A stretch of DNA of 64,000 nt from Bacteroidota bacterium (GTDB taxonomy: Bacteria; Bacteroidota; Bacteroidia; Bacteroidales; UBA12077): assembly GCA_034189025.1 (NCBI GenBank), contig JAXHVS010000142.1:147-64146 (forward strand). Direction: 5' to 3'. The notes under the pieces are model-generated. The model saw only the letters and a program-made list of their open reading frames with translations. It had not been told where the DNA came from and searched no databases. Below are positions 440 through 37,978 of this stretch, one piece after another. Made by a program: the position numbers and the translations under genes. Positions within the stretch are counted from its first letter, which is position 1. Every line of letters starts with the position of its first letter.

Positions 440-1240
440 ATGAGTTTAGTTCACCACATCATTCCCAAACAACAACCCGATATGAAACAACTTAACCAGT
501 GTGTGTTAGCCATGGAGGGTGCAAAATATGAAGGCCGCGGCGAGGGTACTTTGTATTATTGGATTGATGGAAAATCGACCCGGGGCATGGATATTACGAT
601 GCATGACGAATCGATTGAGATTAGAAATACCGTTTTATCCAACCACTCCGACTACCAACTTACAAACAACATTGTAGAAGAGCTGCTGGACCAGACGCAA
701 GGGGTACTCCTTAACGAGGATAGGGAAGAAGTTGAAAAACAGCCTCTTTTGGGTGATCAAGATATTACCGTTAAAACACTTGCCGATTGCGAGATGATCC
801 AAACCCTTTCACAGCAGCATGAGGATATTGCCATCTTGGGCCCGAAACGAAAAGTACATTTCGGGAAACGTACCCATGAAAGGTTTAAATCTTTTAAAGG
901 GGAAACCCTGAAAGAAAAAATATTTGCCCTGATGCTTAAAGTAAATTATGAAATTCCTGATTATGATTACGGGCAGGTGGTGCAGGCTGAAGATCCATCC
1001 GGAGAAAAGAAAATATTACAAATACTAACTAACAAAACCAACTGCATTGTTGATAAATATGATTATATTTTGCTTTACACAGGCACCGAAAATCCTATAA
1101 TGATAACTAATCAGCTGTTAAATACCATGTTGCCATCCAATTGGGAGCTGGTTGATGAATTTACAATTATTGCTCCGGTAACAAGTCGGGAAGAATGGAA
1201 TAAATTATTGCGAAAAACTGAACCCTATAATCTGTTCTGA
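440..1240 (+). CDS. Hypothetical protein, 266 aa, no motif recognised
   Basis: Long ATG-initiated ORF with no signal peptide or TM segment. It is visibly GC-richer than its neighbours (e.g. gccatggagggtgcaaaatatgaaggccgcggcgagggt). It starts 37 bp from the putative IS end. Confidence 0.6.
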   Translation: MSLVHHIIPKQQPDMKQLNQCVLAMEGAKYEGRGEGTLYYWIDGKSTRGMDITMHDESIEIRNTVLSNHSDYQLTNNIVEELLDQTQGVLLNEDREEVEKQPLLGDQDITVKTLADCEMIQTLSQQHEDIAILGPKRKVHFGKRTHERFKSFKGETLKEKIFALMLKVNYEIPDYDYGQVVQAEDPSGEKKILQILTNKTNCIVDKYDYILLYTGTENPIMITNQLLNTMLPSNWELVDEFTIIAPVTSREEWNKLLRKTEPYNLF

Positions 1241-1301: not shown

Positions 1302-1757
1302 CTATTTCTCTGTTTTTTGCTTATTATTCTTTGTATTAGTTTTAGTTCGAATCAGATTATTCACATCAATTAAAGGTATAATATATTTTCCATAAGGGAA
1401 ATAAGCGGTAACATTTAAAATATATGCTCTTATTGTATTAATTATTAATGGTAAACCGGACATTAATAAATAGTTATCTTTTGTAGTTTTTTCTGGCTCT
1501 GATTCAAAACTAAAAACTCCTTGTGCAATAACCTGGAAAACATATCCTGGTATTGGTTTGCTTTTATTATTTCCAATTAGAATAACTTTAATCAAAAATA
1601 ATTCTTTATTGTCTTTATTTGTTAATTTAATATCAAAATCAATATCTAATTCCAGATTCCTATTAAGTTTTTTAGATTCCTTAATAGGAATTGTGTTAAA
1701 ATTACTTTCGGTAATAAATATATTCTCTACTTTAAAATTAGATTCTTGTGCTTTCAT
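1302..1757 (-). CDS. SecB-like chaperone (third gene of a toxin-antitoxin-chaperone module)
   Basis: 151 aa. FKVENIFITESNFN ... FQVIAQGVFSFES ... LMSGLPLIINTIRAYILNVTAYFPYGKYIIPLIDVNNLI lines up by eye with E. coli SecB blocks FQIQRIYTKDISFE / EVQQGGIFSI / [40 protein letters not shown] (from memory). Its ATG overlaps the upstream stop as ATGA (1754-1757). Confidence 0.65.
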   Translation of the reverse strand: MKAQESNFKVENIFITESNFNTIPIKESKKLNRNLELDIDFDIKLTNKDNKELFLIKVILIGNNKSKPIPGYVFQVIAQGVFSFESEPEKTTKDNYLLMSGLPLIINTIRAYILNVTAYFPYGKYIIPLIDVNNLIRTKTNTKNNKQKTEK

Positions 1758-2194
1758 GCAATTTTTAGCTTTGATTGTTCCTCATTTTCAACTATAAAAT
1801 TATCAAAATTATATTTTTTAGGCCGTTTTTGTAAATTCAAATAATCGGGTTGGTCTTCTTCAAAATTTTCAATAAAATCAATATTTAATGTTTCTAAATT
1901 TACTTTTTCAGAGATTTCAAACTTAACTCCAAATATCCTTTGAAATAAGGCTATGTGCTTTAAATTTAGCTGTTTATCTCCACTAAACAACTGAGTTATA
2001 AAACTTGAAGATTTTTTCATCTTTTTAGCCAAATCTGTTTTTGACAAATTATTTAACTTCATAAGATTGTCAAGATAACTCATAAAATCCAATTGGATAA
2101 TTTCTGTTTCGAATTTCAGTTTTTCATTATCACTACTAAATTTTATAAGATCTTTTAACAAGTTTTCATCTATATAATTATTTTTCAAACTCAT
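1754..2194 (-). CDS. higA: XRE-family HTH antitoxin (HigA-like) with ~50-aa C-terminal extension
   Basis: 146 aa. HTH segment LSKTDLAKKMKKSSSFITQLFSGDKQLNLKHIALFQRIFG, then an acidic/aromatic tail EISEKVNLETLNIDFIENFEEDQPDYLNLQKRPKKYNFDNFIVENEEQSKLKIA. Overlaps the toxin gene by 17 nt and the chaperone gene by 4 nt. Confidence 0.65.
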   Translation of the reverse strand: MSLKNNYIDENLLKDLIKFSSDNEKLKFETEIIQLDFMSYLDNLMKLNNLSKTDLAKKMKKSSSFITQLFSGDKQLNLKHIALFQRIFGVKFEISEKVNLETLNIDFIENFEEDQPDYLNLQKRPKKYNFDNFIVENEEQSKLKIA

Positions 2195-2594
2195 CGTAGG
2201 TATATTTTTTTATTTGGTCTATTATATTAACAATTTTATGATCTTCTTTGTTTTTTTGAGTGGTTTTGTGTAAATAATTAATCATAATAATCTTTTTCCC
2301 ATCTTTAAAACATTCTTTGCAATAAATCCGTAAATTATTATTGAACTTACCTTTAAATTTCATTGCAGTAATGTTTTTTTCTTCCAGTGAATACAACTCT
2401 CTGTTATATTGGTTAGATAAAGCAACATATAAAATCCTTTTAAATTTCTTTTTTTTGCTTTTCAGTTCATTTATAATTCCTTTTGCAATTTTTTTATTAG
2501 TAACATCTAAAAACAATTCAACATTGTATTTTTTTAAATCTGGAAATTCATCATAAAATTCATCTAAAGGATATTTTTGTACTTTTTGGCTCAC
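2178..2594 (-). CDS. higB: HigB / Gp49-like (RelE-superfamily) toxin
   Basis: 138 aa with a GTG start (no upstream ATG). The C-terminal half ITAMKFKGKFNNNLRIYCKECFKDGKKIIMINYLHKTTQKNKEDHKIVNIIDQIKKY resembles the M. tuberculosis HigB1 core ILELRW..NNHFRVLFF...VALTAFYKNQQKTPKTKIETA (from memory). It is first in a toxin-antitoxin-chaperone order. Confidence 0.55.
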   Translation of the reverse strand: MSQKVQKYPLDEFYDEFPDLKKYNVELFLDVTNKKIAKGIINELKSKKKKFKRILYVALSNQYNRELYSLEEKNITAMKFKGKFNNNLRIYCKECFKDGKKIIMINYLHKTTQKNKEDHKIVNIIDQIKKYTYDEFEK

Positions 2595-2704
2595 AAAATT
2601 AACTTATAGGTTAAAAATAAAAAAATTTTTCATCATTTATTTTAAAAATAAGAAAAAAATATAGAATTGGAAAATATTTTAGATAATGTAAGAAAAATGT
2701 TCAC

Positions 2705-4559: not shown

Positions 4560-4760
4560 TTCAACGCACAGGAATGTGCGTTATGCATTAAACCGGTACC
4601 GGCTGAAAACGGATGATCCATACTCATCCACCTGAAAGGCAGAAATATCCTGGCGTGTAACTATTAACTGCCATTAGTTTTTACCGTATGCTTTAGCTGG
4701 CGGTACTGAAGCTAAATAAACAAAGGTTTTAGCCGGGTAACCATTTAAATGCTATTCTTT
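4560..4760 (+). repeat. GC-rich structured intergenic repeat, copy B
   Basis: cgcacaGGAAtgtgcg hairpin (4565-4580), GATGATCCATAC (4612-4623), TTTACCGTATGCTTTAGCTGGCGGT (4680-4704), TAAATAAACAAAGGTTTTAGCCGG (4714-4737). Same order and orientation as copy A. Confidence 0.7.
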
Positions 4761-34864: not shown

Positions 34865-35755
34865 TTAATTTAAGGTAATTTCATTCCTTATTTTTCGGAT
34901 AGTATTGAGGAATGAATTAAACTGTTCCTCATTCATAACTACTTTTTCAGCACTTTTAAAACGAACTGTACCATTGGGGTTTTTTATAAAAATCAATTTT
35001 CCTTTATCTTCAACCTTGAATTGGTTGTACAAACTTATAATCTTTTCTAAATAAGGAATAACTTCTTTTACATTGTAATCTTTATCATATAACTTACTTG
35101 TATTTAATAAGCTGACAAAAGCATTTTTTTGGCCGGCAATTTGTTTAATCAATTCATTTTCATCAGAAAACTTATCTACCAAACAAAGTGATAAATAAAT
35201 ACTCTCAATATAGGTTCCTGCACTAATAATAACCATTAAACTATTGCTATTATTATACTCAAGTTCCTGCATTATTTCATAGTAATATACATTGGTTAGA
35301 TGGTAAATAGAATCCAGGTTTTCCATGTTCTGAATAAGATCTTCTTTCATTTTTGCTTTGGTCTCAGCTGAAATAAGTAGATCATTACTCGTTTGACTAA
35401 TTACATCAACATATTTTGTAATTTGATTTCTTTTTGAAAAGAATGCTGCATAAGCTAAATCGGCAAGATAAATACCCAGGTTTAAGTTTTTAGTTTTGGT
35501 ATTTAGGTATTGATTCACATTACCTGCCGGATTAAGGTATTGATTATTAAAGTTTAAATGCTCTTTTTCAATTACATCTAATAATTCATCTGGAGTTGGA
35601 TATGTATATAGTATTTCTTGTGATATTAATGTGTCTGATTGGTTGAAGGGTTGATGATGTTGCGATCTTAAGGTAAATGAATAAAGACTGATTAAAATTA
35701 CAAGTAAAATTTGTAATAAGTGATAAGCTTTGATTTTTAATCTTAGTTGGTTCAT
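34865..35755 (-). CDS. Uncharacterised exported helical protein (paralog of 32439..33332)
   Basis: The track ORF starts at 35842. The ATG at 35755 (MNQLRLKIKAYHLLQILLVILISLYSF) gives a signal/anchor sequence and 296 aa, matching the 297-aa paralog. Confidence 0.65.
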   Translation of the reverse strand: MNQLRLKIKAYHLLQILLVILISLYSFTLRSQHHQPFNQSDTLISQEILYTYPTPDELLDVIEKEHLNFNNQYLNPAGNVNQYLNTKTKNLNLGIYLADLAYAAFFSKRNQITKYVDVISQTSNDLLISAETKAKMKEDLIQNMENLDSIYHLTNVYYYEIMQELEYNNSNSLMVIISAGTYIESIYLSLCLVDKFSDENELIKQIAGQKNAFVSLLNTSKLYDKDYNVKEVIPYLEKIISLYNQFKVEDKGKLIFIKNPNGTVRFKSAEKVVMNEEQFNSFLNTIRKIRNEITLN

Positions 35756-36137
35756 ATAGATACTGTTCTTATTATATATAATACAATTTTTTTTATTTAA
35801 CGTAAATCTTAAAATTACGTTACTCCAGTAATTTTTTATCATTAATAAAAAACGATTAATTAGATTCCGTGTATAAAATTATAATAAGAGTGTAAAAATC
35901 ACTAATAAAGCGTTTTAAAGAAATGCACGAAATCTTTAAATTGTTTTAAATTAATAAATAATTAGCTATATGCTACAATTATTTTTTGTGAAATAAAGAT
36001 AATTTGCCTGTTTTATCAACAATTTTTTGTCATTTGTTGATACTTTTAAAGTTTTTGTCAAAAAAAAGTTTTTTAATTTGTTGGATGTTAAGGATTAATT
36101 AATTAAAATTGATGCTGTTTTAATATCTGGTAAAGAT

Positions 36138-36563
36138 ATGGAAGTTGATAAATCCGTTAAAAAAATAGAACAATCTGAAAACATCTTTGAAGGTAAAAAA
36201 ATACTTATTGTAGAAGATGATGATATTGGATACTCTTTGTTGAGGGAGATATTTGCTTATTATGAATTTACTATCGAACGAGCAAAAGATGGGTTAGAGG
36301 CCATTGAGTATTTTAAACATCATAAATATGCTTTTGATTTAGTGTTAATGGATCTTCGATTACCCAATATGAATGGTTTTGAAGCTACTTCTAGTATAAA
36401 AGATATTAATCCTTCGATTCCAGTTATTGCTGTTACTGCTTATGTTAACTCACAGAGTATTTACGATAGCCAGAATTGTGGCTGTGATGAGTTTATTGCC
36501 AAACCCTTTGAAATAAAATATCTTATATATATTGTTCAACAATATCTATCCGTTAAGAATTAA
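36138..36563 (+). CDS. Stand-alone response-regulator receiver (CheY-like)
   Basis: 141 aa. ILIVEDDD, LVLMDLRLPNMNGFE, AVTAY, AKPF. Confidence 0.85.
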   Translation: MEVDKSVKKIEQSENIFEGKKILIVEDDDIGYSLLREIFAYYEFTIERAKDGLEAIEYFKHHKYAFDLVLMDLRLPNMNGFEATSSIKDINPSIPVIAVTAYVNSQSIYDSQNCGCDEFIAKPFEIKYLIYIVQQYLSVKN

Positions 36564-36697
36564 TTTTATTATACCTCTATAACATTTAATTATTTCATTG
36601 TATTTCTATTGATTCCTGTAAATTAATTTTTTATTCATTTTATAATTCTATAATTTTGGACAGATTATTTTTTTGATATTATTTAAATAATAACATT

Positions 36698-37978
36698 ATG
36701 AACAGAGATACAAGAATATTTGACCTGATCAATCAGGAAAAGGAGAGACAAATTAATGGAATTGAGCTTATTGCCTCGGAAAATTTTGTGAGCGACCAGG
36801 TTTTAGAAGCAATGGGGTCGGTAATGACGAATAAATATGCAGAAGGATATCCCGGAAAACGATATTATGGTGGTTGTGAGGTTGTTGACCAATCAGAAGA
36901 TCTGGCTCGTGAACGATTAAAGGAATTGTTTAATGCAGAGTGGGTTAATGTTCAACCACACTCGGGTGCACAGGCAAATGCTGCTGTATTTATGACCGTT
37001 CTTGAGGCTGGTGATACGTTTATGGGGTTGGACCTTGCACATGGAGGCCACTTATCGCATGGATCTCCTGTAAATTTATCCGGAATATTATATCGCCCAG
37101 TATCCTATGGTGTAAAAGAAGATACCGGATTAGTGGATTACGATATGATGGAAGAAGTTGCTTTGAAAGAAAAACCAAAAATGATTGTAGGAGGAGCTTC
37201 AGCATATTCTCGTGAGTGGGATTACAAGCGTATGCGCGAAATTGCCGATAAAATCGACGCTATTTTAATGATCGATATGGCTCACCCTGCCGGATTAATT
37301 GCTGCCGGATTATTGAATAACCCGCTGGAGTTTGCTCATATTGTAACTTCTACTACACACAAAACTTTACGTGGGCCCAGAGGTGGTATTATATTAATGG
37401 GAAAAGATTTTGAAAATCCATGGGGAAAAACAACCAAAAAAGGAGTGGTACGAAAAATGTCTTCTTTACTAGATTCCGGAGTATTTCCCGGAACACAGGG
37501 GGGGCCTCTTGAACACATTATTGCTGCTAAAGCGGTTGCTTTTAATGAAGCATTAACGCCTGAGTTTAAAGAATATCAAAAACAGGTAAAAAAGAATGCC
37601 GCTGTTATGGCCGATGAATTTATAAAGAACGGTTATAAAGTAATTTCAGGTGGTACCGATAATCACTCCATGTTGATTGACCTAAGAACAAAATTCCCTG
37701 AAATTACCGGTAAGCAGGTAGAAAATACATTGGTAAAAGCACACATAACCATTAATAAAAATATGGTACCTTTTGATTCACGTTCACCATTCCAAACTTC
37801 AGGGATCAGGGTTGGAACGGCAGCTATTACAACACGCGGGATCAAAGAGGATAAAATACCTGCTATTGTTGATTATATCGACCAGGTAATATCTAATATC
37901 GAAGATGAAAATAAAATCAATGAGGTTGGAGTTCAGGTAAAAGAGATGATGAGCAAATACCCCTTGTTTGCGTATTAA
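36698..37978 (+). CDS. glyA: Serine hydroxymethyltransferase
   Basis: [25 protein letters not shown]-lysine motif [14 protein letters not shown]. Confidence 0.95.

Follow-up and report, generated by a model that had tools for sequence, protein, structure and literature searches.

Toxin-antitoxin-chaperone (TAC) systems offer the best illustration of a toxin-antitoxin module under dedicated chaperone control. They have been reported in seven phyla, where they occur sparsely and via horizontal transfer (49 TAC and 11 antitoxin-chaperone systems were counted in 2013), and the characterised members all come from Actinobacteria and Proteobacteria. In Mycobacterium tuberculosis the genes for HigB1 (Rv1955), HigA1 (Rv1956) and SecB(TA) (Rv1957) follow one another in this order. 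The toxin of this system, HigB(TAC), is a member of Pfam family PF05973 (Gp49) and a ribosome-dependent ribonuclease (RNase), with a catalytic pocket comprising E66, R68, N73, R77, K95, Q98, and K99. Validated TACs show that this design is used by more than one toxin-antitoxin family and is passed on horizontally. The chaperone-addiction (ChAD) regions of the antitoxins have been described as hypervariable; the ChAD of HigA is recognised by HigC through aromatic residues, while ClpX recognises the C-terminal Ala-Ala of CmdA. Two Escherichia coli TACs have recently been shown to be phage sensors, and HigBAC serves as the model of a chaperone that doubles as a phage-protein sensor. The subject of the present analysis is a module of three minus-strand genes near the start of a 64,000-nucleotide stretch (the window) from the metagenome-assembled genome (MAG) of a Bacteroidota bacterium of the Bacteroidales (assembly GCA_034189025.1, contig JAXHVS010000142.1, positions 147 to 64,146). 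This module is likely a chromosomal tripartite TAC operon of the HigBA-SecB type, probably acquired horizontally.

The closest described system is the M. tuberculosis TAC, with which the window module shares its gene order. The M. tuberculosis toxin belongs to the Gp49 branch, to which gene 1 of the window has a distant match only; both antitoxins are Xre-type helix-turn-helix (HTH) proteins of similar size (146 aa in the window) with a C-terminal extension; and in both systems the third protein has the SecB fold, Rv1957 (PDB entry 5mtw) being among the top fold matches of gene 3. The two systems differ in that the chaperones share 10-13% identity in structural alignment, the toxin is undetectable by sequence search, the window toxin lacks the Glu of the Gp49 ELR motif, and the antitoxin tails are unrelated in sequence. 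The host is a Bacteroidota MAG. An earlier note on this stretch had read the three genes as a toxin, a long-tailed Xre antitoxin, and a SecB-like chaperone, an interpretation supported here by the fold of gene 3, an HTH_3 match in gene 2, and synteny. It had also stated that no characterised example is known from the Bacteroidota, and a full-text literature search covering SecB-like chaperones, Bacteroidetes, and toxin-antitoxin systems likewise found none. The phylum of the host is no surprise, because TACs are already known sparsely over seven phyla. The module is thus an uncharacterised member of the known HigBA-SecB class and leaves the TAC concept unchanged, with a function that can be proposed by analogy.

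As modelled, the product of gene 3 is a SecB-fold protein. AlphaFold2 run on a three-sequence alignment gave an unusable prediction (predicted local distance difference test score, pLDDT, 40). Repeated with an alignment of 136 relatives, it returned a model with a pLDDT of 96.3 and a predicted TM-score (pTM) of 0.88, containing four beta strands (residues 8-23, 37-48, 51-62, and 71-84) followed by helices at residues 90-117 and 132-150. These correspond to the four-stranded antiparallel sheet, long helix, and C-terminal helix that define the SecB fold. In a Foldseek comparison with the PDB, the top 19 matches were all SecB (1fx3, 1qyn, 1ozb, 5jtl) or 5mtw, which is Rv1957 SecB(TA) bound to the HigA1 ChAD peptide, with probability 1.00, E-values of 4e-7 to 2e-5, and TM-scores of approximately 0.6. 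All 23 matches at E <= 1e-3 were SecB or SecB-like, the four outside the top 19 being streptococcal proteins of unknown function that are taken to be SecB-like, and the next ones had E > 0.03. The C-terminus of gene 3 is lysine-rich (RTKTNTKNNKQKTEK). The tail of E. coli SecB is acidic.

The sequence relatives of gene 3 lead to the same family. A word-indexed homologue search returned two relatives with 61-63% identity, and an exhaustive profile search returned 441 clusters at E <= 1e-3 (162 at E <= 1e-10), nearly all of about 150 aa. Of the 136 aligned relatives, 34 match the Pfam SecB family (PF02556) at E <= 1e-3 (best 3.5e-11), and matches to other Pfam families were not found among them. 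When the family profile was compared with PDB sequences, E. coli SecB (1qyn and 5jtl; E = 0.002) and Haemophilus influenzae SecB (1fx3; E = 0.0033) came out on top, with full-length and colinear matches. Sub-threshold, full-length, and colinear matches of the window protein to the NCBIfam SecB equivalogs (E = 0.004 and 0.008) and a weak match to the PADLOC model PD-T4-9_C (CmdC; E = 1e-4, residues 16-142 onto positions 9-132 of 135) were also obtained. The earlier note had called gene 3 SecB-like by eye; checked against both SecB profiles and SecB folds, it is linked to PF02556 and the solved SecBs through its family profile and to SecB and Rv1957 through its fold. Chance PDB matches to levansucrase, Rab-23, and a short-chain dehydrogenase/reductase enzyme arose in searches with a single sequence or with profiles of three or four sequences and were discarded. 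A search of the 64-kb window found no second SecB-like open reading frame (ORF).

The toxin-antitoxin-chaperone order, which the earlier note had likened to that of M. tuberculosis HigBA1-SecB(TA), is conserved in about 20 other loci, mostly from Bacteroidota, with others in Ignavibacteriota, Cloacimonadota, Spirochaetota, and one Firmicute. Third genes of these syntenic three-gene loci match the chaperone hidden Markov model (HMM) at 1e-32 to 1e-50. Loci found from chaperone relatives include a full three-gene module with 61-91% identity (L003), another whose antitoxin is truncated (L001), and several in which an HTH_3 gene directly upstream of the chaperone is preceded by the same toxin family (L005/L006 and L008-L010). 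Four loci found from toxin relatives with 33-40% identity (L011-L014) encode a toxin of 131-145 aa, an HTH_3 antitoxin of 142-156 aa, and a third protein of 144-163 aa, the last matching the chaperone HMM at 1e-38 to 1e-48. The toxin/antitoxin junction overlaps by 11-14 nt in L003 and L011-L014.

A genome scan with one genome per species and a narrower toxin alignment yielded 17 loci: nine in Bacteroidota (among them Chitinophaga, Flammeovirgaceae, Mariniphaga, Marinilabiliaceae, Prolixibacteraceae, Bacteroidales, and Bacteroidia), two in Melioribacteraceae (Ignavibacteriota), one in Cloacimonadota, two in spirochaetes, one in Syntrophomonadaceae, and two in unclassified MAGs. Three of the 17 end at a contig edge. 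The 14 informative loci comprise ten clear three-gene modules, two with little or no SecB signal in the third gene (L029 and L034), one without a third gene (L030), and one remnant (L043). The third genes of the Chitinophaga MAG (L029, 3844-4296) and the Flammeovirgaceae MAG (L034, 3771-4271) abut or overlap the gene before them and encode 150 and 166 aa, respectively. The chaperone HMM matches that of L034 at E = 0.0024 and that of L029 not at all, and Pfam SecB matches neither. The chaperone slot of each locus holds either a SecB that has diverged strongly or another kind of protein. At L030 (JAGLDR010000139.1, 2923-3688) toxin and antitoxin genes are followed by a Mg-chelatase/ComM-like gene, which may represent a natural two-gene variant.

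These loci bear on whether the chaperone belongs to the module at all. Gene 3 could instead be a general or export SecB next to an ordinary two-gene toxin-antitoxin pair or regulator, without chaperone addiction. Its fold fits a housekeeping SecB as much as SecB(TA), and L030 keeps its toxin and antitoxin without a third gene. Such an arrangement would nevertheless leave several features unaccounted for: a start/stop overlap joins genes 2 and 3, the three-gene unit recurs in diverse phyla whichever of toxin and chaperone serves as the query, a further 53 residues, hypervariable like ChADs, form a tail on the antitoxin, and the whole module is a low-GC island. A housekeeping SecB role in Bacteroidota is moreover unlikely because a 2015 survey counted nine Bacteroidetes SecBs among 3813. 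A general SecB at this position is accordingly judged very unlikely, and a dedicated chaperone within a TAC operon is preferred.

The anatomy of the operon agrees with the TAC reading. All three ORFs and both junction overlaps were found as the earlier note had placed them (Table 1), with the antitoxin ATG located within the last codons of gene 1, and the overlaps suggest that translation of the three genes is coupled. The ORFs are real genes and not chance ORFs, because each has homologues (E-values of 1e-16 to 1e-89) and the three-gene order recurs elsewhere. The module is far more AT-rich than its flanks, as had been noted, with 23.5% GC against a mean of 32.5% for the window (standard deviation 3.3, z = -2.8). 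Nowhere else in the window does a 1.3-kb stretch contain so little GC; an equally low content is reached by only 0.3% of stretches of that length, all of them overlapping the module, and GC at third codon positions is 16-21% in its genes compared with 22-32% in nine large ORFs. This low GC content argues for horizontal acquisition, and in the published view at least 75% of TACs were acquired in this way; the Bacteroidota bacterium probably obtained its module likewise. A sigma-70 consensus scan of the region upstream of the operon did no better than shuffled sequences, the consensus being unsuited to Bacteroidota promoters.

Gene 2 encodes an antitoxin with the Xre-type HTH and long tail that the earlier note had described. 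Its HTH_3 domain (PF01381) scores 25.8 bits against a cut-off of 23 (E = 1.1e-5) in the HMM search that the note had proposed, and the family profile matches Cro/cI-type HTH structures. Across 14 aligned homologues, conservation covers the N-terminal segment and the HTH (the first approximately 100 columns, with an invariant QL..GDK.N motif). Past about residue 95 the homologues cannot be aligned and vary in length. The 53-residue tail contains six aromatic residues (F107, F111, Y118, Y128, F130, and F133) and ends in LKIA; of ten homologues, seven have K[IVA]A, KAA, or RTA as their C-terminus. By its variability and aromatic content this tail resembles a ChAD and may function as one.

Gene 1 is the least certain part of the module. 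A profile search with four sequences collected 59 clusters of 105-150 aa, none of which has a precomputed Pfam domain and all of which, where named, are called hypothetical. Within the family a core is strongly conserved: Y68, E71, T76, K79, and R89 are invariant, N87, C92, K93, E94, K111, Y131, and Y133 nearly so, and its motif reads VTAMKFKGK..N.RIYCKE...KK.VMI...KK..K...GGYDYEF. Gp49 is its sole recurrent Pfam match, reached by 11 of the 59 members at E <= 0.1 (best 0.0062, all below 23.9 bits), while other families match three members at most. NCBIfam contributed one weak match of a family member to the HigB-type model TIGR02683. The unannotated phage family phrog_2523 matches 14 of the 59 toxins (best E = 1.8e-5), which is uninformative on function, and matches to AAA, hemerythrin, YceD, and WDR35 did not recur across the family and were set aside as noise.

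The link was examined further with hhalign. As a reference, ten bona fide Gp49 toxins were aligned that had been gathered, with phage N15 gp49 as the seed, from the records of phages (Shigella, Helicobacter, Zymomonas, Streptococcus, Listeria, Mycobacterium, and gut phages). Between the 59-member family and this reference there is a match of moderate probability (53.7%, P = 1.3e-4), whose 71 colinear columns pair family positions 52-124 with Gp49 positions 27-98; the control comparison with the unrelated chaperone family gave P = 0.53, and N15 gp49 alone matched with a probability of 1.4%. In this register, which is of moderate confidence, K79 stands opposite the Arg of the ELR motif, R89 opposite a conserved Arg, and K110, Q113, and K114 opposite KKTQK. 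Through the Gp49 signature these residues of gene 1 would correspond to R68, R77, K95, Q98, and K99 of HigB(TAC), which itself is outside the alignment; the nearly invariant N87 lies close by.

From its sequence, gene 1 probably encodes a Gp49/HigB-like RNase of the RelE/ParE superfamily. The alternative is that the TAC architecture is correct and that the toxin has another fold or activity, sharing with Gp49 only a short lysine-rich motif. TAC toxins do vary, up to the ADP-ribosyltransferase of CmdTAC, and this family has no recorded Pfam domain in any of its members, no PDB sequence match, Gp49 matches that are all sub-threshold, and an hhalign probability that stays near one half even with the full reference. 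A short shared motif, however, fits poorly with a colinear match over 71 columns at a P-value far from that of the control, with the recurrence of Gp49 above every other Pfam family, and with the alignment of the basic signature residues to the HigB(TAC) catalytic pocket. The toxin-first order with an HTH antitoxin is also typical of Gp49/HigB modules. A toxin of different fold is on balance unlikely, and the HigB-like assignment made in the earlier note is probable on sub-threshold evidence: the Pfam score falls below its cut-off, and the colinear hhalign match is of moderate probability.

Several observations weigh against the TAC reading as a whole. Neither of the outer genes reaches its Pfam family: the window gene 3 scores 14.7 bits against PF02556 (E = 0.029, gathering score 26), although the match is colinear (residues 3-135 onto positions 3-133 of 141), and gene 1 scores 13.5 bits against PF05973 (E = 0.079, threshold 23.9) over residues 86-118 only. 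Of the two profile searches suggested in the earlier note for these genes, that with PF05973 thus failed, while that with PF02556 failed for the window protein and succeeded for some of its relatives, including a Bacteroidales chaperone at 29.9 bits (L038). Gene 1 has no curated NCBIfam, PADLOC, or PDB sequence match, and the Glu of the Gp49 ELR motif (E66 in HigB(TAC)) is replaced in it by Ala77. The immediate neighbours in the window are neither defence nor mobile genes, and tblastn searches with the toxin and chaperone gave no match in phage and plasmid collections. Finally, decayed copies exist in other metagenomes, showing that the family is not always kept intact: an antitoxin cut at 78 aa in a three-gene module (L001, 3635-3871), a frameshifted toxin split into two ORFs (L005, 1960-2363), a 64-aa toxin fragment (L042, 475-669), and a lone toxin remnant (L043, 2977-3303). 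Some of these may be assembly errors.

With such relatives, and with M. tuberculosis HigB2 and HigB3 known as non-toxic homologues, the window module might itself be a decaying or inert remnant without current function. This is improbable given that each of its three ORFs is unbroken and reaches the full length seen in its family, that the overlaps are preserved, and that the invariant or nearly invariant toxin residues Y68, E71, T76, K79, R89, C92, K93, E94, Y131, and Y133 are all present. Copies 99-100% identical to it also occur on other contigs. The product of gene 3 is listed, with identical sequence, as hypothetical in a 'Bacteroidota bacterium' MAG. A functional TAC operon remains the favoured interpretation.

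Beyond gene anatomy, folds and homologies, and synteny, a mechanism can be proposed by analogy with the M. tuberculosis TAC, E. coli HigBAC, and CmdTAC. Coupled translation, as suggested above, would bring the three proteins together during their synthesis. A SecB-like tetramer would hold the aromatic tail of the antitoxin and shield the antitoxin from aggregation or proteolysis, the protease possibly being ClpXP acting via the C-terminal LKIA. Thus protected, the antitoxin would neutralise the toxin through its N-terminal/HTH part and would probably repress the AT-rich promoter region. Should the chaperone be titrated by unfolded proteins or a phage structural protein, or should synthesis stop, the antitoxin would be lost. 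Once free, the toxin would shut down translation, most likely by ribosome-dependent mRNA cleavage as an endonuclease of the Gp49/HigB branch of the RelE/ParE superfamily, and growth arrest or abortive infection would follow. A role in phage defence, suggested by HigBAC and CmdTAC, is put forward tentatively, with stress response or simple addiction as the alternative roles. Somewhat doubtful is a broader proposal, by which the module would stand for a TAC lineage not described before, with its centre in Bacteroidota and other phyla of the FCB (Fibrobacterota, Chlorobiota, and Bacteroidota) group. In it a SecB-like sensor, for which phage structural proteins compete, would serve abortive-infection defence in phyla whose TACs have never been studied, and the toxin, unrecognised by curated models, would be a new RelE/ParE branch or a different fold.

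Other described systems resemble the window module in part. In Geobacter lovleyi Glov-TAC (HigBA), Vibrio MqsRA-SecB, and Methylomonas HicAB-SecB, also three-gene TAC operons, a dedicated SecB-like chaperone controls the antitoxin via a variable ChAD; these systems come from other phyla, their sequence families are unmatched in the window, and the window toxin family is outside the curated models. HigBAC of E. coli NT1F31, an anti-phage TAC that is also of the HigBA type, consists of a toxin with RNase activity, an antitoxin whose HTH is joined to an aromatic-patterned ChAD, and a chaperone resembling SecB. Unlike the window module, which has a 53-residue tail with six irregularly spaced aromatics and no known prophage context or defence phenotype, HigBAC is prophage-borne and its ChAD of approximately 97 residues has four aromatics about 30 residues apart. 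CmdTAC (PD-T4-9, E. coli) shares the chaperone class, as the weak and near-full-length CmdC match indicates, and the small hydrophobic residue plus Ala at the end of the window antitoxin may be compared with the Ala-Ala ClpX signal of CmdA. However, CmdT acts on mRNA as an ADP-ribosyltransferase, and CmdA falls outside the Xre-HTH proteins. In PADLOC neither gene 1 nor gene 2 matched a PD-T4-9 model (CmdT or CmdA), and the window module was ruled out as a CmdTAC on the grounds that the chaperone model alone matches, and weakly. Phage N15 gp49/gp48 and other Gp49-HTH pairs have the same toxin-first order, an HTH antitoxin, and a toxin core to which that of gene 1 has a colinear profile match of moderate probability, including the R and KKTQK-like motifs. 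These are two-gene systems with toxins of approximately 100 aa and antitoxins of approximately 95 aa without a tail, whereas the window module has a 138-aa toxin, an extra 53-aa antitoxin tail, and an attached chaperone gene.

The family to which the module belongs is concentrated in Bacteroidota and related phyla, with about 59 toxin clusters, more than 400 chaperone-related clusters, and 17 species-level genomes. Its toxins are invisible to domain-based annotation, and its chaperones largely so, because Pfam domains are on record for no toxin cluster among the 59 and only about one quarter of the aligned chaperones reach SecB at E <= 0.001. Recognising the family would improve the annotation of defence and toxin-antitoxin genes in Bacteroidota. 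It would also offer a small system in which to ask whether chaperone addiction, and phage sensing by the chaperone, operate alike outside the model phyla.

Table 1. Features of the module and its upstream region, in window positions.
Feature	Positions	Strand	Description
Gene 1, putative toxin	2178..2594	-	138 aa, GTG start; family without annotation; distant Gp49/HigB-like (RelE/ParE superfamily) core at about residues 53-124
Gene 2, antitoxin	1754..2194	-	146 aa; Xre-type HTH between a conserved N-terminal segment and a variable C-terminal tail
Gene 3, SecB-fold chaperone	1302..1757	-	151 aa; AlphaFold2 model, Foldseek, and family profile
Overlap of toxin stop and antitoxin start	2178..2194	-	17 nt, ATGAGTTTGAAAAATAA; read from sequence
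ATGA overlap of antitoxin stop and chaperone start	1754..1757	-	Read from sequence
Xre/HTH_3 DNA-binding domain of antitoxin (residues 44-93)	1916..2065	-	Pfam HTH_3; invariant QL..GDK.N motif
C-terminal tail of antitoxin (residues 94-146), candidate ChAD	1757..1915	-	Variability, aromatics, LKIA end
AT-rich region upstream of operon, presumed promoter/operator	2595..2700	-	12% GC

The surroundings of the module in the window comprise an orphan 266-aa ORF, a small membrane-like ORF, a DUF4440 protein, and an AMP-binding enzyme. No transposase, insertion sequence (IS), tRNA, flanking repeat, or Rfam family was found beside the module in the window, and no transposase or IS adjoins it in an independent Logan contig of the same locus (L026) with identical neighbours. 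The statement of the earlier note that the module lies beside an IS was not confirmed. The 266-aa ORF (440-1240, plus strand) is convergent with the operon, has a GC content of 40% compared with 23.5% for the module, and is kept beside it in L026; it has no Pfam, NCBIfam, or PADLOC match.

Some homologous modules elsewhere have neighbours of another kind. In a member of the Melioribacteraceae (L012) a type I HsdR gene is found upstream and AbiEii downstream, and in a member of the Cloacimonadota (L013) an MmeI-like restriction-modification gene and a Y1 transposase lie upstream. In L014 (GCA_947449695.1, CANFST010000050.1, 1-5396) the module stands between a helicase with a T5orf172/MUG113 pair and a gene for a Piwi-domain protein (prokaryotic Argonaute), surroundings that look like a defence island. 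When 50 ORFs flanking the module at 19 loci were scanned with Pfam, restriction-modification domains recurred most often; most of the ORFs were housekeeping genes, and there was one integrase only.

Two further features of the window were observed. An imperfect direct repeat of approximately 150 nt (2781-2928 and 4597-4742, about 75-85% identical), the sole repeat near the module, is intergenic, has its copies 1.8 kb apart, and does not flank the module. Its 16-nt core TGCTTTAGCTGGCGGT is exact in both copies, with 0 such matches expected by chance; the repeat has no Rfam family match and may represent a structured RNA or else a short element repeated between genes. Second only to the module in low GC among the 1.3-kb stretches of the window (24.5%), a region at approximately 35,400-36,700 covers the 5' end of a 325-aa minus-strand ORF, a gap of about 300 nt, and a 141-aa ORF that, by eye, resembles a stand-alone response-regulator receiver domain.

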